DNA of 18,913 nucleotides, taken from positions 1 to 18,913 of the IMG/VR virus record IMGVR_UViG_2671180298_000003, one strand, 5' to 3'. The translations under genes were made by a program, and so were the position numbers. Within the stretch, counting starts at the first letter, position 1. The number at the start of each line of letters is the position of its first letter. The notes under the pieces were generated by a model that was not told where the DNA came from, searched no databases, and saw nothing but the letters and a program-made list of their open reading frames with translations. Source of the DNA: a virus. Its lineage: Duplodnaviria; Heunggongvirae; Uroviricota; Caudoviricetes. This document shows, one piece after another, positions 1,402 through 17,695 of this stretch.

Positions 1402-1613
1402 CAGAACCTCGCCAGCCGGTACCCAGGATGCCCCCGTCGTCGTGTAATCAGAGCCGCAAGGCGGCGCTCCCACTCCTGCCGTCCCTGCCGGATCTCAGAT
1501 AAGTTTTCCATGGTCATCTGCTGACCATTAAAGGTGACGGATTTTCCGTCCAGCACCGCCATTTCAGCTTCCGTATAACGCTGAATCATGGCTTCGATAT
1601 CATTCTGGTTCAT
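1401..1613 (-). CDS. Head-tail joining protein gpW family
   Basis: ORF 1401..1619; ATG at 1613 overlaps the terminase TGA (ATGA) with GGAGG 6 nt upstream; ~70 aa with C-terminal RRRGHPGY resembling lambda W (RRRGPAGF). Confidence 0.7.
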   Translation of the reverse strand: MNQNDIEAMIQRYTEAEMAVLDGKSVTFNGQQMTMENLSEIRQGRQEWERRLAALITRRRGHPGYRLARF

Positions 1614-3712
1614 AACCATCCTCCGGAAGTCAGCCAGGGGTTAACATCGTCAGTTACTGTTTTCTTCCGTTTTTGTTTTTTAACAGGCGTGGATACCGGT
1701 TCCGGTGAGGGTGACGGTTCGGTACTGTCCGGGACACACTCCAGCCAGGTTTCCAGGCTCGCCCACTCCGGTGCATCCGGCCAGCGGATCTTTTCGTATC
1801 CATGCAGAATGACCAGAGCCTCGGCATACACCATCAGGTCAAAAGCTTCGTTGGCACCGCGACCCGGCTTACTCCATTTCCCGTCACTACTCCGCTCTTC
1901 ATACGTCAGTTCGTCGTAAAACCAGCTCCCCAGCCAGTCAGGGAAATGCACATAGCCGGGACCTGGAGAGTCACGCCATAACGCGTTATTCACCCGGTCT
2001 TTCAGGGCATCCGTCTGAAGAAGCCAGAGCGGCACATCACCTGCGGCCTGCGCCCGTCGGCCCGTTCGTCCGGTGTTATCAGGGAATGTACGGGTGATCA
2101 GTTTTGCGCGCCGGATGCTGTCGCCCTTAAACAGGTAAATACGTTTACCAAGGCCATCACGACGGCAACGACGCCAGAATTTATAGGCATTATCAGTGAC
2201 CCCGTCTTCACCGCCGGAGTCCACCGCCATTGCCATCAGTCGCATTTGTTGAGAAGGATCGGAGGCCAGCGGCCAGCTTTTATGAAAAACATCCGTCAGC
2301 AGGACATCCCAGTCTTCCGGATAGCTGGCCGGATCAATTCGCTGGCTCTCCCCGTCGCTGTCACCGCGCAATGACTGCGTGATGTTGTAACGATCAATAA
2401 TCCAGCGTTCGCCACGGCTGCCATAGCCCGTTACCTGAACCACAAAACGGCGATGACGTCCCGCCTGCACATCCACTGTCGCCACCAGGAAATTAACGCC
2501 ATCCGGCACACTGCGGGAAGGAACTGGCTCTGCCCGCTGCTCAAGCAGTTCACTTTTTCGTTGCTCCATGCTGGCACGGGGAAGATAAGGTAATCCCCAG
2601 TCGGTATTGATAACCGTCTTGAGTGTTTCTTCACTTCCGGTTGTCTCGTATTCCTGTTCTGCAGTAAGCAGTTTGTAAACGAGTTGCGAGAGTGTCTGGT
2701 AAGCAGCTGCCGGACCCTCCATCCAGAATGACGCAATACGTGAGCGTCGGGGATCACCATAACGACTGCCATCCGCATTGATGGATTCACCATCCCGCAA
2801 CCAGACCCCACGTCCGTTCAGCTCACGTTTTTGTTCAGGCATAATCCGTCCTGAACAGGAAGGACACTGAATATAAGCCGCCTCACTTGCCAGCACGGGA
2901 TCGGCAATATCACGGAAACCAGCAACCACATCGCCGCAGGGCTGAAAATACTCACCACAGTGTGGACAGGGCCAGTACCAGCGACGGCGATCGCCACGGT
3001 TATAGAGCGACAGTATCCCCGTGGTTGGTGGAGCCTCATGCGGTGAAGTCCGTCGCCATTTCACATCCTTCACATCCCTGCCGGGGGAACTCTCCACCAG
3101 CGTCATACCACTGGACATAAATGTGGTGGTACGTTTTGAGGCAAGAGAGAAGGCATCCCCCTCGCCATCAATATCTTCCGGAAAACGGTCATAATCCGTC
3201 AGCGCCACGCATTTATAATCTGATGAGGACATGATATTGACTGACGGCCAGCCGATTTTCAGGTAGTTGCCAGCAAGGAATGTTCTGTCATAAACGTTGT
3301 TGTCATTTTTGTTCGGACTCAGGCGACTGACCACTTCCGGGCTGACGCGAAACGTTCTGGCAAGTCGTTTTTTGGAGTGTTCGCGGGCTTTTTCCTCCGT
3401 CATCTGAATGATCAGCATATCAGCAGGATCGCAAATCACATTGTAAATCACCCAGCCGTCAATCAGGCCGATAGTCTTGCCAGTTCGTGCCGGGCCAACA
3501 AATATCACTGCGTCGTATTCACGCGAGGCCAGGCAGTTCATCGGCTCAATAACATACGGTGCCACCAGCGGATCCCACGGGACTGAATTCCCGGCCCCCA
3601 TGGGCACCCGCATATACTGAGCAACGGCATCAGCAACCAGCATTCGTCTCGGTGCGCGAAGGATATAACCTGAATCGGTTCGTGCTGCCTTTGCGGTTTC
3701 CTGATTCAGCAT
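1610..3712 (-). CDS. Terminase large subunit (lambda gpA family)
   Basis: 700-aa ORF; Walker A-like GPARTGKT; CPHCGE zinc motif as in lambda gpA; GGAGG SD 5 nt upstream of ATG; start overlaps the TerS stop (TAATG). Confidence 0.9.
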   Translation of the reverse strand: MLNQETAKAARTDSGYILRAPRRMLVADAVAQYMRVPMGAGNSVPWDPLVAPYVIEPMNCLASREYDAVIFVGPARTGKTIGLIDGWVIYNVICDPADMLIIQMTEEKAREHSKKRLARTFRVSPEVVSRLSPNKNDNNVYDRTFLAGNYLKIGWPSVNIMSSSDYKCVALTDYDRFPEDIDGEGDAFSLASKRTTTFMSSGMTLVESSPGRDVKDVKWRRTSPHEAPPTTGILSLYNRGDRRRWYWPCPHCGEYFQPCGDVVAGFRDIADPVLASEAAYIQCPSCSGRIMPEQKRELNGRGVWLRDGESINADGSRYGDPRRSRIASFWMEGPAAAYQTLSQLVYKLLTAEQEYETTGSEETLKTVINTDWGLPYLPRASMEQRKSELLEQRAEPVPSRSVPDGVNFLVATVDVQAGRHRRFVVQVTGYGSRGERWIIDRYNITQSLRGDSDGESQRIDPASYPEDWDVLLTDVFHKSWPLASDPSQQMRLMAMAVDSGGEDGVTDNAYKFWRRCRRDGLGKRIYLFKGDSIRRAKLITRTFPDNTGRTGRRAQAAGDVPLWLLQTDALKDRVNNALWRDSPGPGYVHFPDWLGSWFYDELTYEERSSDGKWSKPGRGANEAFDLMVYAEALVILHGYEKIRWPDAPEWASLETWLECVPDSTEPSPSPEPVSTPVKKQKRKKTVTDDVNPWLTSGGWL

Positions 3713-4206
3713 TACTCCTCCTGCTGTAATTCCTCCTCATCATCCGCACCTGCTTCGGTCACCCGCAGGGCTATCTGATCGCGCAGATCATCAATAATGG
3801 ACTGAACACGGCTCACAGCGGCAGGCTGCAGGCCGCAGTCACGTTCCAGAATATCCGGTAATGTCTCCAGCACCTGCACGACCGCTTTTGCCCAGATGGC
3901 AAACTCCCGTCTGACATCACTGGCCGGAATGAGTTGTGCCGTTTCCTGTTCGAACTTAAGACGCTCACGTTCAGACTGATACCAGGCTTTGCGTTCATGT
4001 GGATCCATTTCGCCCTCAGCAACCGGCGGTGGTAACCCCATAAATTCAGTCAGAATATCGGTCAACCGGTATAGCTTGAGTTTGTCATGTCCACCAGCGG
4101 GACGAATGTTTTTCAGTCTTGCCACGACAGTCTGGCGGTGCAGACCAGATATCCGCATGCAGCTCGTCGTGATGCTTTCTGCACAAAGGCAACACAAAGA
4201 GGTCAT
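3712..4206 (-). CDS. Terminase small subunit (Nu1-like); start unresolved (GTG 4227 / ATG 4206 / ATG 4158)
   Basis: Immediately upstream of and coupled to the large subunit; HTH-like GLHRQTVVARL near the N-terminus, acidic C-terminal tail; the 5' end overlaps the upstream DUF968 gene in another frame. Confidence 0.6.
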   Translation of the reverse strand: MTSLCCLCAESITTSCMRISGLHRQTVVARLKNIRPAGGHDKLKLYRLTDILTEFMGLPPPVAEGEMDPHERKAWYQSERERLKFEQETAQLIPASDVRREFAIWAKAVVQVLETLPDILERDCGLQPAAVSRVQSIIDDLRDQIALRVTEAGADDEEELQQEE

Positions 4207-5056
4207 GCGCTTTAGTACCCATTCCACCCTGACCGTGACCTATCAGGTGGTGGGGATCATCAGCGGGCTTTCCACAACATGCACACGGCTGTGTCTTAAC
4301 CCAACGCGTGTACTTTTCATTAACCCAGCGGCGACGTTTTGGGCGTAACATAAAAGACTCCGGCGACTCCGGATCCACTTTCAGCGCCAGCACCTTTTTT
4401 GCCTTATCCTGGATGATGCTGGTGGCAGGAACCGAAGGCACAAGGTCACTTTCCCGGGTGACAGACGGCACAACAGGCTTTGGTAATCTCAGTGCCTTAC
4501 GGGCTGCACTTTCCGGTAAGGCATCCGCCAGGTCATTACGAATCAGCCACCAGCACAGTTCCGGCATTGTCACAACGTGACTATCATCAAAACCGAGATC
4601 CCGACGCACAACAGACAACACCCAGCGGGCACAGTTATCCGTTGCCATTGATTCCAGCCGTTCCGTGAACTGATCGCGCAGCTGGTTATCGCAGTGCCAG
4701 CACAGACGGATTGCGCCCGGCGCGTGTCGCATTGTTGTCATGTTCTCGCTGTGCCAGTCGGAATGAGGCCACTGGCAGCCTTTTTCACGAAGTAACCAGC
4801 TTTCAAGACATTCCACGCCACCAGCACGACGGATCACTGCCTCATTGCGGAACACGGCCCGAACGGCAGGATCATCCGCCAGCGGTTGTGATGCCGCCGG
4901 TACGGCACCACTGGCGAAAGATGAATAACGTTCCGGCTCAGGCTCCAGCAGGACACGCCCCTGCATAAACAGGGGCATCAGCTCTGAACCTGGTCTGAAC
5001 AATACGATCCCCATACGCGGGGCAATTTCAGGGGTCAGTAGTGCTCTCACGGTCAC
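4085..5056 (-). CDS. DUF968-like phage protein with C-terminal Cys/His (HNH-like) metal-binding motif
   Basis: 323-aa ORF; C-terminal PCACCGKP...HHLIGHGQGGMGTKAHD...PLCRKHHDELH motif; GTG start 1 nt after the KilA-N stop; family assignment from memory. Confidence 0.5.
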   Translation of the reverse strand: MTVRALLTPEIAPRMGIVLFRPGSELMPLFMQGRVLLEPEPERYSSFASGAVPAASQPLADDPAVRAVFRNEAVIRRAGGVECLESWLLREKGCQWPHSDWHSENMTTMRHAPGAIRLCWHCDNQLRDQFTERLESMATDNCARWVLSVVRRDLGFDDSHVVTMPELCWWLIRNDLADALPESAARKALRLPKPVVPSVTRESDLVPSVPATSIIQDKAKKVLALKVDPESPESFMLRPKRRRWVNEKYTRWVKTQPCACCGKPADDPHHLIGHGQGGMGTKAHDLFVLPLCRKHHDELHADIWSAPPDCRGKTEKHSSRWWT

Positions 5057-5057
5057 C

Positions 5058-5867
5058 TCAATGAACGGTATCGAGCAGCTTTAACAGCTCAGGGAATCGG
5101 GATTCGAAGAAATGCGGCTGCGTCTCGCGCGGATTGGCGGGACTGGTGATGTTCTTGCCGAACATGCAGCCTTTCGCTGTCAGCGACCAGAATTTTTTGA
5201 TGTTGTTAATCGCGGTACGGCTGTATCGTTCGCGCTGCTCGACGATCCCCAGCTTCACCATCTGGTGATATGCCTGATTAGCTGTCAGGCGGATACCATA
5301 CTGCTTCAGCAGTGCACTCAGTGACAGCGTGGGGCGGCTTGAGCCATCAGGCGCGTCAGCAGGAGCATCAATGGCATAGCGCGGTGCCAGATTCGGTAAG
5401 CCAACAGCCTCCTGGAGTTTCTGACAGGCACCAAGCACTGAAGAGTTAGACAGGTTTAATTCCCGGCGCATAAAGTCCAGCAGAATCACACCAGCCTGCA
5501 TCTTGTCAGCAGCCTGTCCGGATAATTTTTCCGGTGCGCTGGTTACCATGTCGAAAGTACGGATCACCTTCAGATGGAATGACGGGCTGATCCACATTGC
5601 ATAGGCATACACCAGTTCCTTGCAGACATACGTTCCCCGTTCATTTCCCCCATGAATCACACTCACCGGGTCAACACCCAAATTCTGGGTGTTGGTCAAT
5701 TCATGAACAAGCTCAACAGTTTGTTGGCTGGAAAGAAACTTTCCTGGCTCCTTGGTTCTGGCATTTGCACCAGATGCTACTGCTGCGCGATGCAGATCGT
5801 TCAGGCTGTAACGCCCATAAGCATCACGACGAACTTCAATACCATCAATGACCATCAGATTATTCAT
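5058..5867 (-). CDS. KilA-N domain-containing phage protein (antirepressor-like)
   Basis: 269-aa ORF; N-terminal KilA-N pattern (IDGIEVRRDAYGRYSLNDLHRAA ... GTYVCKELVYAYAMWISPSFHLKV); GAGGAG SD upstream of ATG. Confidence 0.7.
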   Translation of the reverse strand: MNNLMVIDGIEVRRDAYGRYSLNDLHRAAVASGANARTKEPGKFLSSQQTVELVHELTNTQNLGVDPVSVIHGGNERGTYVCKELVYAYAMWISPSFHLKVIRTFDMVTSAPEKLSGQAADKMQAGVILLDFMRRELNLSNSSVLGACQKLQEAVGLPNLAPRYAIDAPADAPDGSSRPTLSLSALLKQYGIRLTANQAYHQMVKLGIVEQRERYSRTAINNIKKFWSLTAKGCMFGKNITSPANPRETQPHFFESRFPELLKLLDTVH

Positions 5868-5886
5868 ACTTCGTTTCTCCTCTTAA

Positions 5887-6276
5887 TCAGGCGGCTGCAC
5901 CCGCCGGTTTCTCATACTTACTGATAGTGATCTCGACCTTCCCTTTCGGGATAACCGGTCCCCACTCCACCAGCATTCTTTTCACCTGTCTGTCGTCTTC
6001 CCACACACCCGCGTGGGTCAGGGCGTCAAACAGCGCCTTGTTATAGTTGTCCAGATCGCGGATCCGGTTATCCGGAGGAAACAACACGATCTCCACTGAA
6101 GCAGGTGCCGACGTTGGTTTCGGCAGACGACGTAACTGCTCAACTATTGCTGCGCACGCCGCGCTCTGAAATTTTCGCCCCGCCTCGCTTATCAGGCTCT
6201 TACCAGCAAATGCCCCTTTGTTGGGGTGTCGCCAGTACGTGTTCACGCTGGGCGGAAAAGGCAGTATTAGCTTCAT
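5887..6276 (-). CDS. rusA: Holliday junction resolvase RusA
   Basis: 129-aa ORF; RusA-like LPFPPSVNTYWR N-terminus and DLDNYNKALFDALTHAGVWEDD core; ATG overlaps the upstream stop (ATGA); GAGGGAG SD. Confidence 0.85.
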   Translation of the reverse strand: MKLILPFPPSVNTYWRHPNKGAFAGKSLISEAGRKFQSAACAAIVEQLRRLPKPTSAPASVEIVLFPPDNRIRDLDNYNKALFDALTHAGVWEDDRQVKRMLVEWGPVIPKGKVEITISKYEKPAGAAA

Positions 6277-6599
6277 ACTTTCAGCTCCCTCTCATGTAAC
6301 CAGTGGGCTGCACGCAGCCTGGCGTTTTCCTCACCGGCAAGCAGTGCGCGGATGATACCGACCGCTTCGCTGTCGTCGTCCTTCACCGCGGTATGAAGCG
6401 TGATCCCCCGGGCCACGCCACGCTTTATCGTGATGACGCCTTTTTTCTCCAGTGCGCGAAGATGCTCCACCGCTGCATTCACTGAACGGTATCCCAGCAT
6501 GGTTGCCACCTCCTGATTGGTTGGCGGGAAGCCACGTTCTTTCTGGTAAGAAATCAGCATATCCAGCACCTGCTGCTGGCATTGAGTTAACGTCGTCAT
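6273..6599 (-). CDS. LexA-family DNA-binding protein: N-terminal LexA winged-HTH domain only, no S24 peptidase domain
   Basis: 108-aa ORF; residues 1-70 align closely by eye with the E. coli LexA N-terminal domain (LTQCQQQVLDMLISYQKERGFPPT...GYRSVNAAVEHLRALEKKGVI...ARGI); ends 40 residues later with no Ser/Lys protease motifs; ATGA-coupled to Dam. Confidence 0.75.
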   Translation of the reverse strand: MTTLTQCQQQVLDMLISYQKERGFPPTNQEVATMLGYRSVNAAVEHLRALEKKGVITIKRGVARGITLHTAVKDDDSEAVGIIRALLAGEENARLRAAHWLHERELKV

Positions 6600-7249
6600 G
6601 CCGCCATCTCCCTGACCAGTTTTTCCGCCTGCTGGCGAACCTGCGCCAGAAAGGCCTCACCACATGCCTCAAGTTCATCGCGCCCGATGTAGCTGATTGC
6701 CGGTCCCTTCCAGGTCTTGTCGAAAACAGCAATAGCACCAGCGAAGAAAGCGCCTGTCGGCACCTGCTTCTCATCCTTCGGGATAAACCAGGCAGGCAGT
6801 TCAAAACCAATACGCCCGCGAATAAAAGCAATATGGTCTGCGTCTTCCGGCCACCACACTTCGCTGGTGGCAGCTTTGATCAGGAAAACATAGCGCCCGC
6901 CTTTATCACGCATGGAACTGGCATGCTTCATGATGTAACGCATGCCAGTGATGTATTGCCCCTCATGCTGACTGGCGCGGCTGTATGGGGGATTACCAAA
7001 GGCAGCCCCTTTAAGCTCCGCAAGACGTTCTGACCAGTCATGTGCCAGCGCGTTGTCTTCCGCCGTGTAATACGCGGCACATTTGGCGTTATCACCGTCA
7101 GTGAACAGATCCAGAACAAACGGACCAAACAGGGTGTTAATTCCCCAGAAAATGTTATCCGGCGTGCGCCACTGATCGCCCACTTCCTTCAGTTCATGGG
7201 CTGGTTTGTTCCGCAGTTCCACCAGCGCCTGGCAATATTTATTACTCAT
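6596..7249 (-). CDS. Phage Dam-family DNA N6-adenine methyltransferase
   Basis: NPPY catalytic motif (FGNPPYS) and N-terminal WRTP motif; ATG at 7249 with GGGGG SD, overlapping the PerC-like stop (TAATG); ORF-track start 7282 is probably an upstream extension. Confidence 0.8.
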   Translation of the reverse strand: MSNKYCQALVELRNKPAHELKEVGDQWRTPDNIFWGINTLFGPFVLDLFTDGDNAKCAAYYTAEDNALAHDWSERLAELKGAAFGNPPYSRASQHEGQYITGMRYIMKHASSMRDKGGRYVFLIKAATSEVWWPEDADHIAFIRGRIGFELPAWFIPKDEKQVPTGAFFAGAIAVFDKTWKGPAISYIGRDELEACGEAFLAQVRQQAEKLVREMAA

Positions 7250-7737
7250 TAAGCCCCCACGTAATTCCCTGACAGATACCACTCTTCACCTGATGCAGCC
7301 CGCTTATTGCTTTTCCGTAAACACCGTTCACGACGCGCCAGAAAATTATTTCGTTCTGGCTGGGAGTGGCTTTCACGGAATGCCGCCATCCACACCGTTG
7401 CAGCACGACGGTATAAGCCCCTGGACTCCAGTTCTTCCGCCTGGCGGGTCAGGCACAAAATCACCCGCGGGTCGTTAGTGCCGACATAGAAATTGCGCAC
7501 AGGTCTGGTTTCACGAACTGGTTGTGGTTCCGGCTCCTGCGCTCTCTCAGTCAGGCGTGGGAAATGTCTGCGTGTATCTCCTTCACAACGGTGAGCCACA
7601 CGCCCACTCTGACGTAACTTGCTTGCTGACTGCAGAACGCGCTGCCGTGAGTAACCTGCAAAAGCATCCGCAATGTCTCCGGAAGTACACCCCGGATGGG
7701 CTTCAATGAATTTCTGAACTTCATTCAAAAGACTCAT
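7249..7737 (-). CDS. PerC-family transcriptional activator-like protein (YfdN-like)
   Basis: C-terminal LESRGLYRRAATVWMAAF resembles the conserved PerC/Pch motif; ATG at 7737 (third codon of ORF) with GGGGG SD; 2 nt after the upstream TGA. Confidence 0.5.
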   Translation of the reverse strand: MSLLNEVQKFIEAHPGCTSGDIADAFAGYSRQRVLQSASKLRQSGRVAHRCEGDTRRHFPRLTERAQEPEPQPVRETRPVRNFYVGTNDPRVILCLTRQAEELESRGLYRRAATVWMAAFRESHSQPERNNFLARRERCLRKSNKRAASGEEWYLSGNYVGA

Positions 7738-7739
7738 GA

Positions 7740-8558
7740 TCACCCCCTGAATCCTGCCGGGATCTGGCTGTAGTCCACGTTGTCGTAACTGGCTTTGAAG
7801 TACGGGTCCTCACGTCTGGCTGCAGATACCGCAGGAACTTCCCAGGATTCTTCGAAATGACGATCCGGACCAAAGAACGTGACAGCCTGTTTCACAAATT
7901 GTGTGCCGCTGTTACCCATCGCAGATACCCAGCCTGCATAGCGTTTCACACCTTCCAGCATGGTTTCGGGGTTTACCCCCTCATTCAAACGGGCTTTCCA
8001 GGCTTTGAAGGCTGCTGATTTTGAATTGCCACCAGCACGTTTGGGGTATGCCAGCCATGCCTGCTCAAACTCCGGAGAGTATTCCGGTCGGTTTGAACGA
8101 ACTCGCACGGACTCATCAGCAGATGCACCAACAGCTATTGGTTCATTGACTGGTTCTTTGACTGGTTCAAAAGAGTGACTGGTTCTGGGTGAATCTCCTG
8201 CACTACCCCCTGGTGCAACTCCTGCACTACCTGGTGAATTTGCTGCACCAGATAGTGAATTATTTGCACTACCCCCTAGTGAATCTCCTGCACCATCCAG
8301 ATGAAGGAGATAGATATTACTTGAGTTACCTTTTTCACCTTTCCGGGTGACTTTTTTTACCAGCCCGGACTCACAAAGGGCCGCAATATGATTCATCACA
8401 GAACGTTTGCTAATCTCGCACTGGTCAGCAATATGCTGGTAGCTGGGCCAGCACTCCCCCTGATCGCTGGCATTATCAGCCAGCTTGATCAGAACCAGTT
8501 TTCGCAATGGATTACCCACTCGAATTTTCATCGCTTTAACCATCAGCTCCATACTCAT
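7740..8558 (-). CDS. Replication initiator / replisome organizer (lambda O-like, YfdO-like) with internal iteron-bearing linker
   Basis: 272 aa; N-terminal winged-HTH typical of phage replication proteins; Gly/Ser/Ala-rich linker encoded by direct nucleotide repeats; lies downstream of cro/CII-like genes. Confidence 0.6.
   Translation of the reverse strand: MSMELMVKAMKIRVGNPLRKLVLIKLADNASDQGECWPSYQHIADQCEISKRSVMNHIAALCESGLVKKVTRKGEKGNSSNIYLLHLDGAGDSLGGSANNSLSGAANSPGSAGVAPGGSAGDSPRTSHSFEPVKEPVNEPIAVGASADESVRVRSNRPEYSPEFEQAWLAYPKRAGGNSKSAAFKAWKARLNEGVNPETMLEGVKRYAGWVSAMGNSGTQFVKQAVTFFGPDRHFEESWEVPAVSAARREDPYFKASYDNVDYSQIPAGFRG
8189..8300. repeat. Putative replication origin: about five ~22-24-bp direct repeats (iterons, core cTGCACtacc...GTGAAt) inside the O-like gene, preceded by three gactggttc repeats (8147-8185)
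   Basis: Repeats read directly from sequence; arrangement parallels lambda ori inside gene O. Confidence 0.55.
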
Positions 8559-8779
8559 GCAGCACCTCCGAGATGCTTCATGTTTTTTCCGGAGCGAAAG
8601 GTTATAAGCGGCATACTGACGCGGTAACTACGGCCCAGCGGTTCACAAATCACCTTCTGACATTCACGGTCAACCAGGCTAACACGTAGAACATGCCCTG
8701 CAGGTGTGGTGTACCACTGACCCGGACGAGGACAACGGAAAGTCTGATTGGTAAACCGTTTGAAAATATTCCGGATCAT
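8555..8779 (-). CDS. Hypothetical small phage protein (74 aa)
   Basis: ORF bracketed by ATGA/ATGA overlaps with both neighbours, consistent with translational coupling; no recognisable domain. Confidence 0.4.
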   Translation of the reverse strand: MIRNIFKRFTNQTFRCPRPGQWYTTPAGHVLRVSLVDRECQKVICEPLGRSYRVSMPLITFRSGKNMKHLGGAA

Positions 8780-9924
8780 TTGCGCCCCCTTACCTCTGAA
8801 GGGTTCAGCGACAAATTTATGAGGCAGGCCAGTGCCGAAGCATCATTAATATAGTCATACAAGCTAACAGCCAGCGGAGATTCGGCTTTTGCCAACATAG
8901 GATAAAGCTGCTGCAGCCAGACCTGATGAATTGATGAAATGTAGGAATAGAGAACGCTGGCGTTATGTGCAACGTCGCTCGGTACAGGGGGTTTTGAAAG
9001 CTGTTTCTCCATCTGGTTAAAGGCATTGATATATGCCTCTTTGAACTGGGCAGCACGTTTACCCGTGAAACCCATAGCAAGAAACGCAAAGCCGTCGCGG
9101 GTTATTTGATAGCAAGGTAGTTTGCGGCCTGATGCGTCGATGTACTCACTGAGCTGAAAATTCAGCTCAGTAAATTCGGCAGAGCATTCAAGAGACGCAA
9201 TTTTTTGAATGACATTTTTGTGTTGTTTGCCGAAATAACTAGCAACAGCCAGAGAAGAAGTAACAACTTTGTCTGCAATAATGCAAAGTTCAGGTTGTAC
9301 TAAGGCAGGGATCGTAGCCATGATGGCAGCCTCCGTATGCAATGGATAACTTCCACCACCGGAAACGCCAATTTCGCTGGTGGTGAACTGAGCAGGGTTG
9401 GCGTAACCGGCGCATACGGAAACCGGCGCACCTTTCGGTGCCCCCACCCAGCCCACCATAATTTGGGTATAGCTGAGTTGTAGCAACAAAAAAGACGCTA
9501 ACGCGCCAATTGTCGCCGTATGCAATTCCAGGACGCCAATCCCGGCACCCGCTTTATAAGGTGCCTGAACAGTGTAACGTCCCGGAATGGCAGAATCAAT
9601 GTGCTGGTGGTCCTTCACACTCAACAAAATCACGCCTGAATTTCCACAAAGGACTAAAGCACTCATGCGGGTAGTCTTTGCGAAGATAGATAACGCGCTG
9701 TGTTTCTGGCTCCCAACGAATAACATGGACATAAAGCCCTCTTCCGTCACGAAACCAGCGGTTAAGTTCCTGCACAACTCGCCCCCCACAGTCAGGTAAA
9801 GTTCTCTGTGGTTACTTACAGCCAGGTGATCTGGTAATCTGCATTCATGCCGTAACAACAGGTGTTCAGCGACACTGACCACCAGCTGTTGCGACAAACG
9901 GTTATTTGCCGTTAAACTGTTCAT
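8776..9924 (-). CDS. Rha-family phage regulatory protein with ~200-aa N-terminal extension; nested in-frame start at 9321 would give a 181-aa Rha-only product (8776..9321)
   Basis: C-terminal 181 aa begins MATIPALV and carries the Rha signature GFAFLAMGFTGKRAAQFKEAYINAFNQME; GGAGG SD 8 nt upstream of internal ATG 9321; upstream ATG 9924 overlaps the stop of the preceding gene (ATGA) and the frame stays open for 201 codons. Confidence 0.65.
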   Translation of the reverse strand: MNSLTANNRLSQQLVVSVAEHLLLRHECRLPDHLAVSNHRELYLTVGGELCRNLTAGFVTEEGFMSMLFVGSQKHSALSIFAKTTRMSALVLCGNSGVILLSVKDHQHIDSAIPGRYTVQAPYKAGAGIGVLELHTATIGALASFLLLQLSYTQIMVGWVGAPKGAPVSVCAGYANPAQFTTSEIGVSGGGSYPLHTEAAIMATIPALVQPELCIIADKVVTSSLAVASYFGKQHKNVIQKIASLECSAEFTELNFQLSEYIDASGRKLPCYQITRDGFAFLAMGFTGKRAAQFKEAYINAFNQMEKQLSKPPVPSDVAHNASVLYSYISSIHQVWLQQLYPMLAKAESPLAVSLYDYINDASALACLINLSLNPSEVRGRK

Positions 9925-10472
9925 GCGTTAGTTTCTCCACAGACACAAAACGCCACGACGCCCGGAGCTGCACACTCGCGGGCGTCACTCTTTTCTGGAG
10001 CGCAGAAGATTTTGTAGACCAGTGCTGCATGCTCCTGGAGCTTCGAAATTGACAGATACAACTCATCATTAATTGCTGTCTGCTCGTGTGGCTCCACGAC
10101 CCCATCTTCGATTGCCGAACGAATCTGCTTTGAGTAATTCCCGATCTGTTCGATGACTTCCAGCAGGCGCTGGTTTATATCGGCGTTCTCTACTTCCTCA
10201 ATTTCAGGAAGCGATACGAACACCCCACCGGCAGACTGTGCGACAGCATCCGCAATGTAGTGAGTGCCAGCCGCGCGCTGTAAAACCATTGCCCATCCCA
10301 GCGGGAAAATCTGATCGCCATCTGCACGAAGGCGGTTGAATAAAGCGTTCTCTGTTACATCCAGCCAGTCAGCAGCTTCAGCGTAACCCCCAGGCAATGC
10401 CGCGATAGTTTTTCTGACAGCTTTCACGTACCACTCAGGTTGTTTTTCCACTTTCCAGTGATGCTTACCCAC
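9921..10472 (-). CDS. Putative CII-like (CP76-type) phage regulatory protein
   Basis: 183-aa ORF directly after cro; GTG start with GGAGG SD 6 nt upstream; HTH-like segment GGYAEAADWLDVTENALFNRL; family assignment tentative. Confidence 0.4.
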   Translation of the reverse strand: MGKHHWKVEKQPEWYVKAVRKTIAALPGGYAEAADWLDVTENALFNRLRADGDQIFPLGWAMVLQRAAGTHYIADAVAQSAGGVFVSLPEIEEVENADINQRLLEVIEQIGNYSKQIRSAIEDGVVEPHEQTAINDELYLSISKLQEHAALVYKIFCAPEKSDARECAAPGVVAFCVCGETNA

Positions 10473-10725
10473 GGCTTACCTCCTGTTCCTGTGGTTTAAA
10501 CCCATTCTGGTTTTGGCTAGATTGAAAACGTGCCGGATAAAGAATCTGCATTTCGCTGATTTCACCCTTAAAAAAATTGGCCAGACGTTCTGCAAGATCG
10601 ATAGATGGAATTTGTTCCAGTCTTTCAATACGACTCAGCGTCGCTGGATTGACCTGAACGCCCGCAGCAACATGCTGCAAAGTAAATCCGTGCGCCTTAC
10701 GCACATTTCGTAATGGTGATTGCAT
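10465..10725 (-). CDS. cro: Cro-like XRE-family HTH repressor
   Basis: 86 aa; HTH FTLQHVAAGVQVNPATLSRIERLEQ; divergent from cI across an operator-rich 97-bp spacer; GGAGG SD 5 nt upstream. Confidence 0.75.
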   Translation of the reverse strand: MQSPLRNVRKAHGFTLQHVAAGVQVNPATLSRIERLEQIPSIDLAERLANFFKGEISEMQILYPARFQSSQNQNGFKPQEQEVSRG

Positions 10726-10822
10726 ATAACCTCCACATATTGCGTGATGAGCATATTATTTCACGCAAATATTTTGCGCAAGTTGATTTGCTTAACGCGC
10801 AATAAAGAAATGTAATAAACGC
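10726..10822. promoter_or_regulatory. Immunity switch region (OR-like): divergent cro and cI promoters with operator-like sites
   Basis: TTGCTTAACGCGCAA (10788-10802, TTGC-N7-GCAA), palindromic TTGCGCAA (10774-10781), inverted repeat TTGCGTGA...TCACGCAA (10740-10768); putative -35 TTGCTT / -10 TGTAAT ending at the cI ATG. Confidence 0.6.
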
Positions 10823-11515
10823 ATGAACATAGGAAACCGAGTCAGACAACTTCGCCAGGCGAAGAACATGAAAATCGCCGATCTCGCTGAAGCAATAGGA
10901 GTGGATGCGGCGAATATCTCGCGCCTGGAAACAGGTAAGCAGAAACAATTCACTGAACAAGCCCTGAGTAATATTGCCAGGAGCTTAGGTGTTGATATTG
11001 CTGATCTCTTTACCTCAGACGTCAAAAGTAATACTGTATGTAAAAACAGTATTAGTGAGGATGTTGCGCAGGTGAAGGATGTATTCCGTATTGAAATGCT
11101 GGATGTCAGTGCCAGTGCGGGAAATGGCCTTATCCAGGGCGGTGATGTCATTGATGTGATTCATGCCATTGAATACAGAACTGATAATGCTGTATCGATG
11201 TTTGGCGGACGACCAGCCAATCACATTAAAGTTATCAACGTTCGTGGGGACAGTATGTGTCCAACCATTGAGCCAGGAGATCTCATCTTCGTTGATATCA
11301 GTATCAATCAGTTTGATGGGGATGGTATATATGTATTTGGTTTTGATGATAAAATTTACGTCAAACGACTGCAAATGATACCTGATAAACTGCTGGTAAT
11401 TTCTGATAATCAGATTTACCGCGAATGGGGAATTACCAGCGAAAACGAACATCGGTTTATGGTCTTTGGAAAGGTCTTAATCAGTCAGTCACAAACCCTT
11501 AAGCGACACAATTAA
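10823..11515 (+). CDS. cI: CI-type prophage repressor (N-terminal XRE HTH, C-terminal S24 LexA-like peptidase)
   Basis: 230 aa; HTH MKIADLAEAIGVDAANISRLETGK; Ala-Gly cleavage site (SASAGNG); catalytic Ser in GDSM and Lys in YVKRL. Confidence 0.9.
   Translation: MNIGNRVRQLRQAKNMKIADLAEAIGVDAANISRLETGKQKQFTEQALSNIARSLGVDIADLFTSDVKSNTVCKNSISEDVAQVKDVFRIEMLDVSASAGNGLIQGGDVIDVIHAIEYRTDNAVSMFGGRPANHIKVINVRGDSMCPTIEPGDLIFVDISINQFDGDGIYVFGFDDKIYVKRLQMIPDKLLVISDNQIYREWGITSENEHRFMVFGKVLISQSQTLKRHN
11032..11051. promoter_or_regulatory. LexA/SOS-box-like palindrome TACTGTATGTAAAAACAGTA inside the cI coding sequence
   Basis: Perfect CTGT-N8-ACAG with TA flanks and AT-rich spacer; only such site found in a manual scan of the window. 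Confidence 0.4.
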
Positions 11516-11536
11516 CCCCCTACCTCAACATCAATT

Positions 11537-11558
11537 AGCCACCAGAAGGTGGCTTTTC
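11537..11558 (+). terminator. Rho-independent terminator downstream of cI
   Basis: Hairpin AGCCACC-agaa-GGTGGCT followed by TTTT, 22 nt after the cI stop. Confidence 0.6.
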
Positions 11559-11571
11559 ATTACCCACCAAA

Positions 11572-11610
11572 TTGCATATCTCGCAATAAAAACACTTGCA
11601 TAATGCGCAA
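11572..11610. promoter_or_regulatory. OL-like operator pair / probable early-left promoter region
   Basis: Two TTGC-N7-GCAA sites (TTGCATATCTCGCAA 11572-11586; TTGCATAATGCGCAA 11596-11610) matching the motif in the cI/cro spacer. Confidence 0.5.
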
Positions 11611-12055
11611 CTTCATTTTATCTTTCTTTCCAGACCTACAAACAAGGTACTAACAAAATTTGGTTGTAACACGGCGTATGGCACATGCGTCGTTAGCGGT
11701 CTGGGGACGTTAAAGGGGACAATCCACTCCTTGCTCGGGCAAACAAACCAGGTAGCCGGAATGTGCAAGTCAATGATGATGCTGATAAGACGCCTAACCA
11801 GCGTGGCGATTCGGTTTGACGCCTGGGAAGAGACCAGGGTGCAACGATGAGGGCATTTATGGAGCCGCGACAAAGTGTGGTGCCGTAACTGGCTAAGTGC
11901 TCTCAGCGTTGTGGTGAATGCGCAGGCTGATGCGCGAAAGACATTGCAGCTATTGCGGAAAAGAGCTGTTCGGCGGGGCAATTAAACGCCCGTGAGAGTC
12001 TGAAATAACCGCAAGCCGGAGATCAGCACCGGTCACCACAACAGCCACTGCTTTG

Positions 12056-12101
12056 GCGGTACCAGTTTGTACACTTGCTTCCGGCTGGTACCGCTCTTTT
12101 T
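12056..12101 (+). terminator. Terminator-like hairpin in early-left leader, overlapping a boxA-like CGCTCTTTTTAC
   Basis: Perfect 10-bp stem GCGGTACCAG/CTGGTACCGC, 19-nt loop, then TCTTTTT. Confidence 0.4.
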
Positions 12102-12238
12102 ACAAAACAGAGAAGAGCATCACCGGACGACGGGCTCATAACCCAATCCATCCGGGCGGCTGCCACCGCAGGTGTTCTTCTCTGTTTTGTGGAGAAACCA
12201 ACCGACCTTGCAGGGTCGATATGATGAGGAGCAGCAAA

Positions 12239-12601
12239 ATGGCTAGCGAACGCAGTACTGATGTGCAGGCATTTATCGGGGAGCTGGACGGCGGCGTATT
12301 TGAAACCAAAATCGGCGCAGTTCTCAGTGAAGTCGCTTCAGGTGTGATGAACACGAAAACCAAAGGTAAGGTCTCACTCAACCTGGAAATCGAACCATTT
12401 GATGAGAACCGTGTGAAAATCAAACACAAACTCTCATATGTTCGCCCGACTAACCGCGGGAAAATTTCCGAAGAAGACACCACCGAAACGCCGATGTATG
12501 TCAATCGCGGTGGTCGCCTGACTATTCTGCAGGAAGACCAGGGACAATTACTGACTCTTGCCGGTGAACCTGACGGAAAACTACGCGCAGCAGGTCATTA
12601 A
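12239..12601 (+). CDS. Hypothetical early phage protein (YfdP-like, 120 aa)
   Basis: AGGAG SD 7 nt upstream of ATG 12239; ORF-track upstream extension (TTG at 12053) crosses leader hairpins and lacks an RBS. Confidence 0.6.
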   Translation: MASERSTDVQAFIGELDGGVFETKIGAVLSEVASGVMNTKTKGKVSLNLEIEPFDENRVKIKHKLSYVRPTNRGKISEEDTTETPMYVNRGGRLTILQEDQGQLLTLAGEPDGKLRAAGH

Positions 12602-12666
12602 TATCGTTCTTAATTAACTGATTATTTATCTCATCACTGAATATCTTTATATAGTGAGGACTTATT

Positions 12667-13491
12667 ATGTCTCAGAACTTAGACGCAACCGCAATTAATC
12701 AAATCCATGCCCTTATTTCTGCTCAGGGTGTTAATGAAATTATCAGTAAGATTGGTGCCGATGCTGTGGCATTGCCTGAGAATTTCCGCATTCATGATCT
12801 GGAAAAATTTAATTTAAATCGCTTCCGTTTCCGTGGTGCGCTTTCCACTGCCAACATCGATGACTTTACCCGTTATTCTAAAGATCTTGCAGATGAAGGC
12901 ACCCGCTGCTTTATCGATGCTGATAATATGCGTGCCGTCAGTGTACTTAACCTGGGTACTATTGATGAACCAGGTCACGCAGATAACACCGCCACTCTCA
13001 AACTGAAAAAGACAGCACCGTTCTCTGCCCTGTTGTCTGTTAACGGCGAGCGTAACTCCCAGAAGTCACTGGCAGAATGGATTGAAGACTGGGCCGACTA
13101 CCTTGTGGGCTTTGATGCTAATGGTGACGCTATTCAGGCAACAAAAGCGGCTGCGGCAGTCCGTAAAATCACGATTGAAGCAAACCAGACCGCTGATTTT
13201 GAAGATAATGACTTCAGCGGCAAACGCTCCCTGATGGAATCTGTCGAAGCGAAGACCAAAGACATTATGCCAGTGGCATTTGAATTTAAATGCGTTCCGT
13301 TTGAAGGTCTGAAAGAACGTCCGTTTAAATTACGCCTCAGCATTATCACTGGCGATCGTCCTGTACTGGTTCTGCGCATTATTCAGCTGGAAGCGGTGCA
13401 GGAAGATATGGCTAACGAATTTCGTGATCTGCTTGTTGAGAAATTCAAAGACAGCAAAGTAGAAACCTTTATTGGTACTTTCACCGCCTGA
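12667..13491 (+). CDS. yfdQ: YfdQ-like protein (DUF2303 family), function unknown
   Basis: 274 aa, same length and operon position as CPS-53 YfdQ; GAGGA SD upstream; family call from memory. Confidence 0.6.
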
Positions 13492-13503
13492 TTTCATTAC
13501 TGC

Positions 13504-13527
13504 AAATGCCCCTGCGGGGGCATTTAT
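13504..13527 (+). terminator. Intra-operon rho-independent terminator/attenuator
   Basis: AAATGCCCC-tgcg-GGGGCATTT hairpin followed by AT-rich tail, 13 nt after the yfdQ-like stop. Confidence 0.55.
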
Positions 13528-13618
13528 GGAAACGTAATTAACTCAATAATCACCGGATGGTGAGGGCTTCCTTTTACCCAAACTCAGCGCGGTGCAGCGC
13601 ATATACGTGGAGAACAAA

Positions 13619-14155
13619 ATGTCATTTATTAAAACTTTTTCCGGGAAGCATTTTTATTATGACAAGATAAATAAAGACGACATCGTGATTAACGATATCG
13701 CGGTTTCCCTTTCAAATATCTGCCGCTTTGCCGGTCATCTTTCTCACTTCTACAGTGTCGCCCAACATGCGGTGCTTTGCAGCCAGCTGGTGCCGCAGGA
13801 ATTTGCTTTTGAAGCGTTAATGCATGATGCAACAGAAGCGTATTGCCAGGATATTCCCGCTCCACTGAAACGCCTTCTTCCTGACTATAAACGGATGGAA
13901 GAAAAAATTGACGCCGTAATCCGTGAGAAATACGGGTTACCCCCAGTTATGAGTACGCCCGTGAAATATGCCGATCTTATCATGCTGGCAACCGAACGCC
14001 GCGATCTCGGGCTTGATGATGGCTCTTTCTGGCCTGTACTGGAAGGCATCCCGGCAACAGAGATGTTCAACGTGATTCCACTGGCACCTAGCCATGCCTA
14101 CGGGATGTTTATGGAACGTTTTAACGAGTTATCGGAGTTACGCAAATGCGCATGA
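13619..14155 (+). CDS. yfdR: HD-domain phosphohydrolase, YfdR-like 5'-deoxynucleotidase
   Basis: 178 aa from ATG 13619 (GGAG SD); HD signature H...HD (SVAQHAV ... LMHDATEA); ORF-track GTG start at 13592 is probably an extension. Confidence 0.7.
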   Translation: MSFIKTFSGKHFYYDKINKDDIVINDIAVSLSNICRFAGHLSHFYSVAQHAVLCSQLVPQEFAFEALMHDATEAYCQDIPAPLKRLLPDYKRMEEKIDAVIREKYGLPPVMSTPVKYADLIMLATERRDLGLDDGSFWPVLEGIPATEMFNVIPLAPSHAYGMFMERFNELSELRKCA

Positions 14156-14508
14156 ATGTTTTCGAAATGGAAGGGTTTCTTCGCGGGAAATGTGTACCGC
14201 GAGATCTGAAAGTGAACGAAACAAATGCTGAGTACCTGGTACGTAAATTCGACGCGCTTGAAGCTAAATGTGCGGCACTGGAAAACAAAATAATACCAGT
14301 GTCAGCTGAACTGCCACCAGCAAATGAAAGTGTTCTGTTATTTGATGCTAACGGAGAAGGCTGGCTGATTGGCTGGCGTTCTCTCTGGTACACTTGGGGA
14401 CAAAAAGAAACCGGAGAATGGCAGTGGACATTTCAGGTCGGGGACCTTGAAAACTTCAATATCACTCACTGGGCAGTAATGCCAAAAGCGCCGGAGGCTG
14501 GAGCATAA
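14146..14508 (+). CDS. DUF551-like phage protein (YfdS-like)
   Basis: 120 aa; C-terminal ITHWAVMPKAPE motif; GGAG SD; overlaps upstream stop. Confidence 0.55.
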   Translation: MRMNVFEMEGFLRGKCVPRDLKVNETNAEYLVRKFDALEAKCAALENKIIPVSAELPPANESVLLFDANGEGWLIGWRSLWYTWGQKETGEWQWTFQVGDLENFNITHWAVMPKAPEAGA

Positions 14509-15128
14509 TGACCACATTTACCAATAAAGAACTGATTAAAGAAATCAAAGAACGAATCAGCAGCCTAGAGGTTCGAGACGATATTGAGCGCCGTGCTTAT
14601 GAAATTGCTCTGGCATCGCTAGAAGAGGAGCCGGTGGCATGGCTGCATTCAGAAAATGGCTTAGGTATTCCGGCAATAACGAGGAGTAAAAACATTGCTG
14701 ACAGTTGGTTATCAAAGGGCTGGTATGTTCAGCCGCTATATATAGCCAAGCCAGTGCCGGTGGTGCCAGATGCTCGTCCGTCTTTAAATAATGGCATAGT
14801 CGGCTTTGATGAAGGCTGGAACGCCTGCCGCGCCGCCATGCTTAATGGTGCCGAACCTGTAAGCCAGACTTACAAGTTGAACGAGCTGTCGGGCAACTCT
14901 CCGGTAACTCCGGATGGTTGGATAAGCTGTAGTGAGCGAATGCCGAACGATAAACAGTATGTTTGGTGTTGGGGTAAGTCTTACGGCTGGACTGAGTGCG
15001 ATACCTTCGAAGGGTATTACGATTGTTCGAGAAACAAATGGTGGGCAGTTACTGACAATGGGGAAGAACCGGCATCGAAAGTAACCCACTGGATGCCGCT
15101 ACCGGAGCCACCGCAGGAGGTGAAGTAA
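14508..15128 (+). CDS. DUF551-domain phage protein (YfdT-like, longer form)
   Basis: 206 aa; C-terminal W...ERMP...VTHWMPLPEPP motif; TAATG overlap with upstream gene. Confidence 0.55.
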   Translation: MTTFTNKELIKEIKERISSLEVRDDIERRAYEIALASLEEEPVAWLHSENGLGIPAITRSKNIADSWLSKGWYVQPLYIAKPVPVVPDARPSLNNGIVGFDEGWNACRAAMLNGAEPVSQTYKLNELSGNSPVTPDGWISCSERMPNDKQYVWCWGKSYGWTECDTFEGYYDCSRNKWWAVTDNGEEPASKVTHWMPLPEPPQEVK

Positions 15129-15322
15129 TGAACAACTTAATGACAACTAAACAAGTCGCCGACTTCTGTGGCGTTTCAGTATCGACCGTTCTTCGCTGGA
15201 ACAGCGTAAACAGGAGAACTGGCCAGAAATACAGGCCAGACTTTCCAGATCCTGATATTAAATCATGCCCAAATAAATGGGCATCACGCAAGATTTACAA
15301 ATTTGCGGGAGTTATTGAGTAA
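15128..15322 (+). CDS. Excisionase-like HTH DNA-binding protein (AlpA/TorI family)
   Basis: 64 aa; HTH MTTKQVADFCGVSVSTVLRW; strong AGGAGGTGA SD; last gene of early-left operon, facing the integrase. Confidence 0.7.
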   Translation: MNNLMTTKQVADFCGVSVSTVLRWNSVNRRTGQKYRPDFPDPDIKSCPNKWASRKIYKFAGVIE

Positions 15323-15357
15323 CGAGCATTAGCTCAGATGAGAGTTGGTACACCTAT

Positions 15358-15398
15358 GGCACAGAGCTAAACCTGATCTGTTATATTCGCTCTGTGCC
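15358..15398. repeat. Perfect 10-bp inverted repeat GGCACAGAGC / GCTCTGTGCC with 21-nt spacer between convergent genes
   Basis: Read directly from sequence; nested TAGCTC/GAGCTA repeat at 15330-15369; no U-tract on either strand. Confidence 0.4.
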
Positions 15399-15429
15399 GG
15401 AAGTATGCCATATTTATTACATACAGTTG

Positions 15430-17562: not shown

Positions 17563-17645
17563 CAAAAATCCTAATAAACAAATAAAAATGTTATAATCAA
17601 AAACTGCAAGGATTAGCAAGCAATTCTTACAGTTTTAAGAAGGGG

Positions 17646-17671
17646 ATTATACCGCAATATGCATAATTGCG
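17646..17671 (-). promoter_or_regulatory. Putative promoter of the CHAT gene: perfect -10 TATAAT (minus strand) abutting a 19-bp palindrome CGCAATATGCATAATTGCG
   Basis: Read from sequence; palindrome occupies the -35/spacer position; no good -35 hexamer. Confidence 0.4.
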
Positions 17672-17695
17672 TTCTGCCTATGCAAAATGTCAGTT

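Follow-up and report, generated by a model that had tools for sequence, protein, structure and literature searches.

A nested Rha gene in a lambdoid prophage probably belongs to a P4/P1-type RNA immunity module crossed by a long open reading frame

The immI operon of phages P1 and P7 (c4-icd-ant1/ant2) encodes the C4 antisense RNA, whose loops a' and b' have targets a1/b1 and a2/b2. The gene next downstream has its ribosome site under b2, and the gene under control encodes an antirepressor. In P1, icd separates C4 from ant, the proteins Ant1 and Ant2 are translated from nested starts in one frame, and P1-related phages differ in specificity type; to our knowledge, no translated open reading frame (ORF) crosses c4. 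Here we analysed an 18,913-nucleotide (nt) stretch of caudoviral DNA (IMG/VR record IMGVR_UViG_2671180298_000003, positions 1 to 18,913; hereafter the window), in which the gene for a Rha-type regulator is nested in frame at the end of a longer ORF, behind RNA elements that resemble those of P1 and of the satellite P4. For P4, PMC10111431, drawing on Forti et al. 1999, describes Kil as a truncated Eta made on occasional read-through. In the same account, full-length Eta is translated only from the upstream late promoter and in coupling with the upstream gene, the nested genes are reported to give two products, Eta and Kil, and translation of Eta prevents termination, so that the downstream P4 genes are expressed. 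That CI and seqA homologues are embedded in satellite Bro-network genes has also been noted (PMC10111431). In the isrK-orf45-anrP locus of Salmonella Gifsy-1, transcription from the isrK promoter partially reads through a terminator, and translation of the antirepressor needs translation of the upstream ORF across the C4 region (PMC4825925). The kind of arrangement is already known, from P4 eta/kil with its CI RNA and from the C4 and isrK entries of Rfam; what is new is Rha as the cargo of such a module within the early operon of a lambdoid prophage, the overlap with ymfM and DUF4222, and quantitative comparative evidence on the open frame. We put at roughly 0.7 the probability that the window carries, within a lambdoid early-right operon, an RNA immunity module of the P4/P1 type, with Rha as the regulated gene and with a long frame that serves the passage of ribosomes.

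The long ORF begins at an ATG (9924-9922) that overlaps the TGA of ymfL (9923-9921) as ATGA, and the Rha gene begins at an internal in-frame ATG (9321-9319) that follows a GGAGG (9334-9330) at a spacing of 8 nt (Table 1). Both starts had been proposed in a first-pass annotation made from the letters alone, and both stand. The 201 codons between them hold no stop in their own frame, whereas these 603 nt read in the other two frames give 12 and 6 stops, and 0/20000 mononucleotide shuffles of the stretch left the frame open; the openness is for these reasons beyond chance. A Rha domain follows the internal ATG, as had been claimed: PF09669 (E 1.8e-32) spans residues 222-307 of the long ORF, which are residues 21-106 of the 181-residue (aa) form, and TIGR02681 positions 10-106 align to residues 17-110 of the latter, model position 10 falling on residue 17. 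The domain thus lies near the N-terminus of the 181-aa form and begins only at residue 218-222 of the 382-aa form; the 181-aa form is the canonical Rha protein. Annotation pipelines do not separate the two. PGAP treats the whole ORF of an identical copy in an E. coli chromosome as a single 'Rha family phage regulatory protein' (WP_040100577.1), GenBank phage records likewise hold a single protein of 382 aa (or 340 or 384 aa) named 'Rha family', 'antirepressor' or 'transcriptional regulator', and the RNAs are unannotated. The search with NCBIfam models found none for the N-terminal extension, and a PADLOC search gave no match for Rha or for the long ORF.

The first-pass annotation, made without searches, could assign no function to the first 200 residues; with searches, Pfam Phage_ASH, DUF4222 (in another frame) and the Rfam families C4 and isrK all match there, and the stretch is not an unknown protein domain. 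The long ORF is composed of a ymfM homologue (codons 1 to ~112-116), a match to Phage_ASH (PF10554, here Ash; residues 117-212, E 2.5e-17) and Rha (codons 202-382). Codons 117-201 are the translation of a candidate promoter, an IsrK-type RNA with its terminator, a C4-type RNA and two target sites, and the stretch matched by Phage_ASH is the translation of the candidate promoter, isrK, C4 and the first Rha residues. Both RNAs score above the Rfam gathering scores (Table 1), and the match to the separate Rfam c4-a1b1 model is weak (21.4 bits, below its gathering score of 46.7). For comparison we collected 120 IMG/VR loci with a DNA search pattern that represents the C4 5' end; in the group whose cargo gene, like that of the window, begins MAT.., 37 distinct leaders have 176 variable columns in their last 250 nt. 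The sequence and its conservation point to TTGATT-N17-TACACT as a candidate promoter. This candidate ends 6 nt 5' of IsrK, has the DUF4222 stop codon inside its -35 element and hardly varies among most of the 37 leaders; in its place, two divergent leaders carry other pairs with a 17-nt spacing, TTGAAA..TATAGT and TTTACA..TACACT, as read by eye.

P4 has the same order of elements. In P4 (NC_001609), a long ORF (8812-8168) whose ATG overlaps the TGA of ORF88 contains both an isrK match (60.8 bits, 8692-8615) and a C4 match (74.9 bits, 8507-8420), and its residues 37-161 match Pfam Ash over the full model (E 4.5e-23; P4 8330-8704). The P4 ORF ends ..QEAAIMATTLTPSHPEF.. (..EAAIMATT..), and this end was identified as the 65-aa Kil, nested in frame behind a GGAGGCTGCCATCATGGCTAC junction. 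The window shares with P4 an upstream gene, an ATGA-coupled long ORF, an internal promoter (a candidate in the window), a seqA/IsrK-type RNA with a T-run, a CI/C4-type RNA, a target over the Shine-Dalgarno sequence (SD) and a nested in-frame gene, as well as the junction GGAGGCTGCCATCATGGCTAC itself with the protein sequence ..EAAIMAT... By position, the candidate promoter is the analogue of P4 PLE and of Gifsy-1 PisrK. The two ORFs are only weakly alike by BLASTP (E 1e-5, 38% over 61 aa), and they differ in their cargo (a 181-aa Rha-family regulator in the window, a 65-aa Icd-like Kil in P4), in their setting (a lambdoid prophage in the window, where a cII-like gene and replication genes flank the module, versus a satellite), in the extra ~100 ymfM-like codons that overlap DUF4222 in the window, and in the spacing from IsrK to C4 (24 nt in the window, 107 nt in P4). 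Unlike in P1, where icd is interposed, the cargo gene of the window has its own SD under b2.

The two loops of C4 are complementary to sites on both sides of it. The b' core CCGTATGC is complementary to GCATACGG, which is present twice, in b1 (9523-9516) and in b2 over the Rha SD, where b' (9422-9411) and 9341-9330 can form up to 12 contiguous pairs, G-U included, that reach across the GGAGG. Similarly, a' (ACGCCAA) is complementary to TTGGCGT, present in a1 (9539-9533) and in a2 (9371-9365). Loop and targets have changed together in other phages: compared with the window, cdtI has the loop GGTAGCC and the targets GGCTACC and GCTACC, and Stx2a_1447 has the loop TTTGGTGA and TCACCAAA in both targets. 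In an alignment of 39 distinct leaders, with partners slid by 1-3 columns and 500 shuffles as controls, 97.3% of cells were paired across the C4 helices, a':a2 and b':b2, and 99.0% when a1/b1 were used instead, against 33-46% in the slid controls; 22-23 pairs were changed on both sides, and 0/500 shuffles reached the observed pairing. The three internal C4 helices were 100% paired in the 39 leaders, with compensatory changes; the figures for the individual interactions were 94.2% for b':b2 (8 of its 12 pairs changed on both sides), 87-98% for a':a2, and 96-98% for a1/b1 with a'/b'. A whole-sequence RNAduplex comparison of C4 with its targets was uninformative, 7 and 25 of 500 shuffles being equally low, and loop complementarity and covariation were used in its place. 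By the measure of this covariation, the C4 loops are matched both to the IsrK sites and to the Rha-SD sites, and the RNA elements are probably functional.

The a and b segments of the 39 leaders (window 9330-9540) assort independently, about seven types of a being combined variously with about ten types of b, a pattern which suggests that modules recombine and that prophages fall into compatibility groups at the RNA level. Four IMG/VR contigs (L022, L023, L037 and L075) carry two or three tandem modules ~656 nt apart; in L037, each module consists of an isrK/C4 leader and a 120-aa Rha-like gene, and the a/b specificity types differ.

The covariation also bears on the possibility that 'Ash' is a folded, functional N-terminal domain fused to Rha, which would make the long product a two-domain protein. 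PF10554 and phrog_821, 995 and 3960 do model the region as protein, but these families were built from called ORFs, and the RNA helices and pairings with their compensatory changes explain the columns fully. In addition, variable segments swap amino acids freely, and the 'domain' covers a candidate promoter and the T-run of a terminator. We therefore regard a two-domain protein as very improbable, and Pfam 'Ash' (window 9289-9576) and PHROGs 821, 995 and 3960 as in effect translated RNA genes and target sites.

The start of the cargo gene is conserved together with its leader. GAGG, 8 nt and ATG were kept in 6/6 aligned phages, with ATGGCTAC next in the five non-Sakai sequences, and the sequence just 5' of the conserved GAGG varied in keeping with the RNA-specificity pattern. 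Given this conservation, ATG 9321 is the conserved and probably regulated start of the cargo gene. An ATGA likewise joins the Rha TGA to the ATG of the following gene, and that 74-aa gene and the replication gene at 7740-8558 share the early-right operon with Rha; transcription must consequently cross the RNA module.

Among the 37 leaders, the 250 nt before the Rha-position ATG held 0 stops in frame 0 (370 distinct column-codons), compared with 22/375 and 17/372 distinct stop sites in the other frames, many of them in variable loops, and the three leader indels were all of 3 nt. Nesting, upstream coupling and the internal SD and ATG, which had been described for the window, are thus kept with a stop-free frame in at least 37 distinct homologous leaders. 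Since the leaders had first been chosen for a spacing that is a multiple of 3, with the attendant risk of ascertainment, relatives were also examined without this filter, and the region 5' of the orf45-like AUG (9459-9457), which lies outside the filter's reach, was analysed separately; it held 0 stop sites, versus 9 and 7 in the other frames. The frame always starts at an ATG at or next to the stop of the preceding ORF, in at least eight different upstream contexts. In the class without DUF4222, this ATG lies 15-21 nt before the -35 element, a position at which the window has GTG 9618, and where modules stand in tandem, each later ATG shares bases with the stop of the ORF before it. The peptide encoded by the extension is not conserved, the spacer reading LLLQLSYT, LYALFCHA, LCHDQHYA or LSSALTHA across leaders. 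From these patterns, selection seems to keep the frame open and not to keep a protein domain.

Table 1. Coordinates of the RNA module, the long ORF and the neighbouring genes in the window.
Feature	Position	Strand	Description
XRE/cI-type repressor gene	10823-11515
cro-like gene	10465-10725
Upstream gene ymfL, cII-like	9921..10472	(-)	PGAP name ymfL; Pfam Phage_CP76 match
Eta-like long open frame	8776..9924	(-)	382 codons
DUF4222 small gene	9596..9775	(-)	59 aa; GTG start; +2 frame inside long ORF
Candidate sigma-70 promoter	9571..9599	(-)	TTGATT (9599-9594) N17 TACACT (9576-9571)
IsrK / P4 seqA-type RNA	9488..9564	(-)	Rfam RF01394, 61.2 bits, gathering score 50
a1	9540-9533		ATTGGCGT; inside IsrK
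b1	9525-9516		TTGCATACGG; inside IsrK
Intrinsic terminator ending IsrK	9507-9488		hairpin and T-run; also found by terminator scan
C4 / P4 CI-type antisense RNA	9376..9463	(-)	Rfam RF01695, 80.7 bits, gathering score 45
orf45-like AUG	9459-9457		at C4 5' end; in frame with Rha
b' loop of C4	9422-9411		core CCGTATGC at 9419-9412
a'	9404-9398		ACGCCAA, single-stranded; in C4
a2	9372-9365		ATTGGCGT; Rha-leader target site
b2	9342-9333		TTGCATACGG; Rha-leader target site; target region 9330..9372 (-)
Nested Rha gene	8776..9321	(-)	181 aa; own SD and ATG; PF09669 / TIGR02681
Downstream 74-aa gene	8555..8779	(-)	phrog_1153
Replication gene, next after 74-aa gene	7740-8558		HTH_36/DnaD_N

Codons ~50-110 of the long ORF overlap the DUF4222 gene, which matches Pfam PF13973 (E 9.5e-14; 51 bits, cut-off 27; profile positions 4-51 of 53) and, over its full length, phrog_1343 (E 1e-36). 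Substitutions in this gene fall on the three codon positions as 8/6/27, with a ratio of nonsynonymous to synonymous substitution rates (dN/dS) of 0.04-0.05, whereas dN/dS of the long frame over the overlap is 1.5-1.8. Judged by these substitutions, purifying selection at the amino-acid level acts on the DUF4222 frame and not on the long frame. The ymfM gene of the K-12 prophage e14 (112 aa, annotated as a cell division inhibitor) is homologous to the first ~112-116 codons of the long ORF (MNSLT..) and, like it, is coupled to ymfL by ATGA and carries a DUF4222 ORF in its +2 frame; unlike the window, e14 has no IsrK/C4/Rha module, and ymfM stops just before the replication gene. Between e14 (3323-3681) and the window (9596-9924), the DUF4222 ORF is better conserved than the ymfM that shares its DNA. 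The expression clone described in the text of the ymfM preprint contains both frames, and a search of that text found no frame-specific or stop-codon control; the filamentation phenotype could thus be due to ymfM or to DUF4222.

Several findings weigh against our reading. A real gene in another frame shares the DNA of the first ~100 codons of the long ORF, and the independent lineages, few in number, do not show these codons to be translated; an IMG/VR search with the DUF4222 protein returned only copies with 97-98% identity, which offer no independent test of the openness of codons 1-100. The promoter scanner missed the candidate promoter, which has 8/12 consensus positions against a threshold of 9/12. 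In the wider family, stops interrupt the frame 5' of the orf45 AUG in 28/86 distinct leaders, and leaders of the Gifsy-1 and Sakai types carry a TGA right before that AUG, with either a separate 45-codon ORF and an AUGA overlap or earlier stops. In six close relatives, a 1-nt deletion before the cargo ATG places an Icd-like gene out of frame. In-frame fusion to the cargo is hence not essential, although it is the rule in the window's group, and in view of these limits what recurs is an ORF that comes in from the 5' side and runs across the RNA module.

Four leaders before Icd-like genes of 64-81 aa (L014, L045, L051 and L024) have such a module-crossing ORF from an upstream ATGA start; it continues out of frame across the Icd-like gene, for up to 416 codons.

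The stops in the 28 leaders would also suit the view that the long ORF is an annotation artefact, with the 181-aa Rha as the sole protein and the untranslated long frame open as a by-product of conserved, G+C-rich RNA sequence. The unconserved extension peptide and a dN/dS above 1 over the DUF4222 overlap fit that view as well, and structured RNA often has open frames; VT2-Sakai shows open stretches of 66-79 codons in other frames. A by-product would not, however, be expected to keep frame 0 of the 37 leaders free of stops when the other two frames collect 22 and 17 distinct sites, to restrict indels to 3 nt, or to place an ATG at or next to the upstream stop in at least eight unrelated contexts, and PMC10111431 reports that P4 eta is translated. 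We consider an artefact unlikely.

The same comparison speaks to the idea that two genes were recently fused in this copy when a stop codon was lost, which the first-pass annotation had raised together with a search of homologues for a stop or frameshift. A small ORF and an antirepressor are indeed separate in relatives of the Gifsy-1 and Sakai types, and to that extent the expected two-gene state exists; in the window's own group of 37 leaders, the layout is an in-frame, stop-free fusion, so this copy is no one-off product of a point mutation. The fused layout occurs with Rha cargo of several lengths and with other short cargo, and also in the phages cdtI, Stx2a_1447, Stx1_EH1995 and Stx2_12E129 and in P4. 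A recent stop loss is on this evidence scarcely credible.

A further possibility is control of the Gifsy-1 type, in which translation would start at the orf45-like AUG 9459 on transcripts from the internal promoter and a short IsrK would activate in trans. Gifsy-1 shares with the window IsrK, a C4-like RNA (processed STnc1160 in Gifsy-1) and cargo of the antirepressor type; the cargo of the Sakai-type relative is ORF6N with P22_AR_C and not Rha. AUG 9459-9457 lies at the position of the Gifsy-1 orf45 AUG-107, and the exact Gifsy-1 layout, a 45-codon ORF with an AUGA overlap, exists in IMG/VR (L009, L107 and L115). In Gifsy-1, however, orf45 is a separate ORF of 45 codons whose stop overlaps the anrP AUG, and in loci of this type the TGA immediately before the orf45 AUG means that no through-frame arrives from upstream, whereas in the window the frame is continuous from ymfL to Rha. 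Since no stop lies between AUG 9459 and Rha at 9321, the window departs from the Gifsy-1 layout, and the product of such control would be a 227-aa N-extended Rha and not a coupled pair. No SD precedes 9459 (the preceding sequence is CCCAAAUU), and the depletion of stops upstream of 9459 through IsrK (0 versus 9 and 7) and the coupled upstream ATGs would be left unexplained. Control of this type is compatible with a P4/P1-type module crossed by ribosomes and does not exclude it; as the account of this locus we think it quite unlikely.

For the module crossed by ribosomes, we infer the steps in the lysogen and on induction from P4 eta/kil, P1 c4-icd-ant and Gifsy-1 isrK-orf45-anrP. A lysogen would use the internal promoter alone, and transcripts from it would stop at the terminator or be processed to C4; C4 would bind a2/b2 and occlude the Rha ribosome site, so that Rha and the downstream genes would stay off. 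Upon derepression of the early promoter, ribosomes leaving ymfL would re-initiate at ATG 9924 or nearer, for example at GTG 9618, and would cross the terminator, C4 and the target sites, which would override both termination and antisense repression. The result would be a long Eta-like product that ends in Rha, and transcription would reach the replication genes. Through-translation of this kind would make the long and the 181-aa products both plausible, by analogy with P4, as had been suggested for the two starts; the N-terminal extension would be a translated leader with no folded domain. Rha itself is probably an antirepressor-like effector, given the PHROG anti-repressor families that share its domain and the analogy with AnrP and Ant.

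Such a locus would place an RNA immunity switch of the P4/P1 type ahead of a Rha-type regulator in the main early operon of lambdoid phages, Shiga-toxin phages included, and, given the comparative data, it lends itself to experiments on whether one stretch of DNA acts both as RNA gene and as translated leader. DNA of the ORF has matches in 1552/5426 complete E. coli genomes, 522 of which hold at least 80% of it. More tentatively, and at somewhat less than even odds, we suggest that in a large group of lambdoid E. coli prophages, among them those with stx (Shiga toxin) or cdt genes, ~250 nt combine a promoter, two RNAs with a terminator and an ORF kept open by selection solely for the passage of ribosomes, and that the whole early-right operon (Rha, replication and, where present, Q) depends on translation-coupled suppression both of the terminator embedded with the small RNAs and of antisense immunity. 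If so, the re-assorting a/b loop types would form an RNA-based second layer of heteroimmunity among prophages, and Rha would have two isoforms, the one of 382 aa belonging to the lytic phase and differing from the one of 181 aa.

Related ORFs are deposited under other names. BCI49837 of Stx1_EH1995 (L004, 1483-2505), deposited as 'phage antirepressor Ant', is Ash and Rha by Pfam, and a 277-aa 'hypothetical protein' of Stx2_12E129 (L005) is Ash with a diverged Rha domain.

Elsewhere in the window, ~4.8 kb are missing at ~4149/4150 relative to a 99.7%-identical prophage in NZ_CP062901 (L209, 15776-20568). The missing DNA comprises the 3' end of a DUF968 gene, the Q antiterminator, a DNA methyltransferase and lysis genes, and DUF968 now adjoins DUF1441 and a terminase gene in the window. 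With the loss of Q and the lysis genes, the window prophage is probably defective. A 729-aa ORF at 15430-17619 (-) matches the PADLOC BovA model PDLC03831 (E 2e-241) and has a CHAT domain; this BovA-like ORF occupies the integrase-proximal cargo site, at which the related prophage has an anti-phage dCTP deaminase instead.

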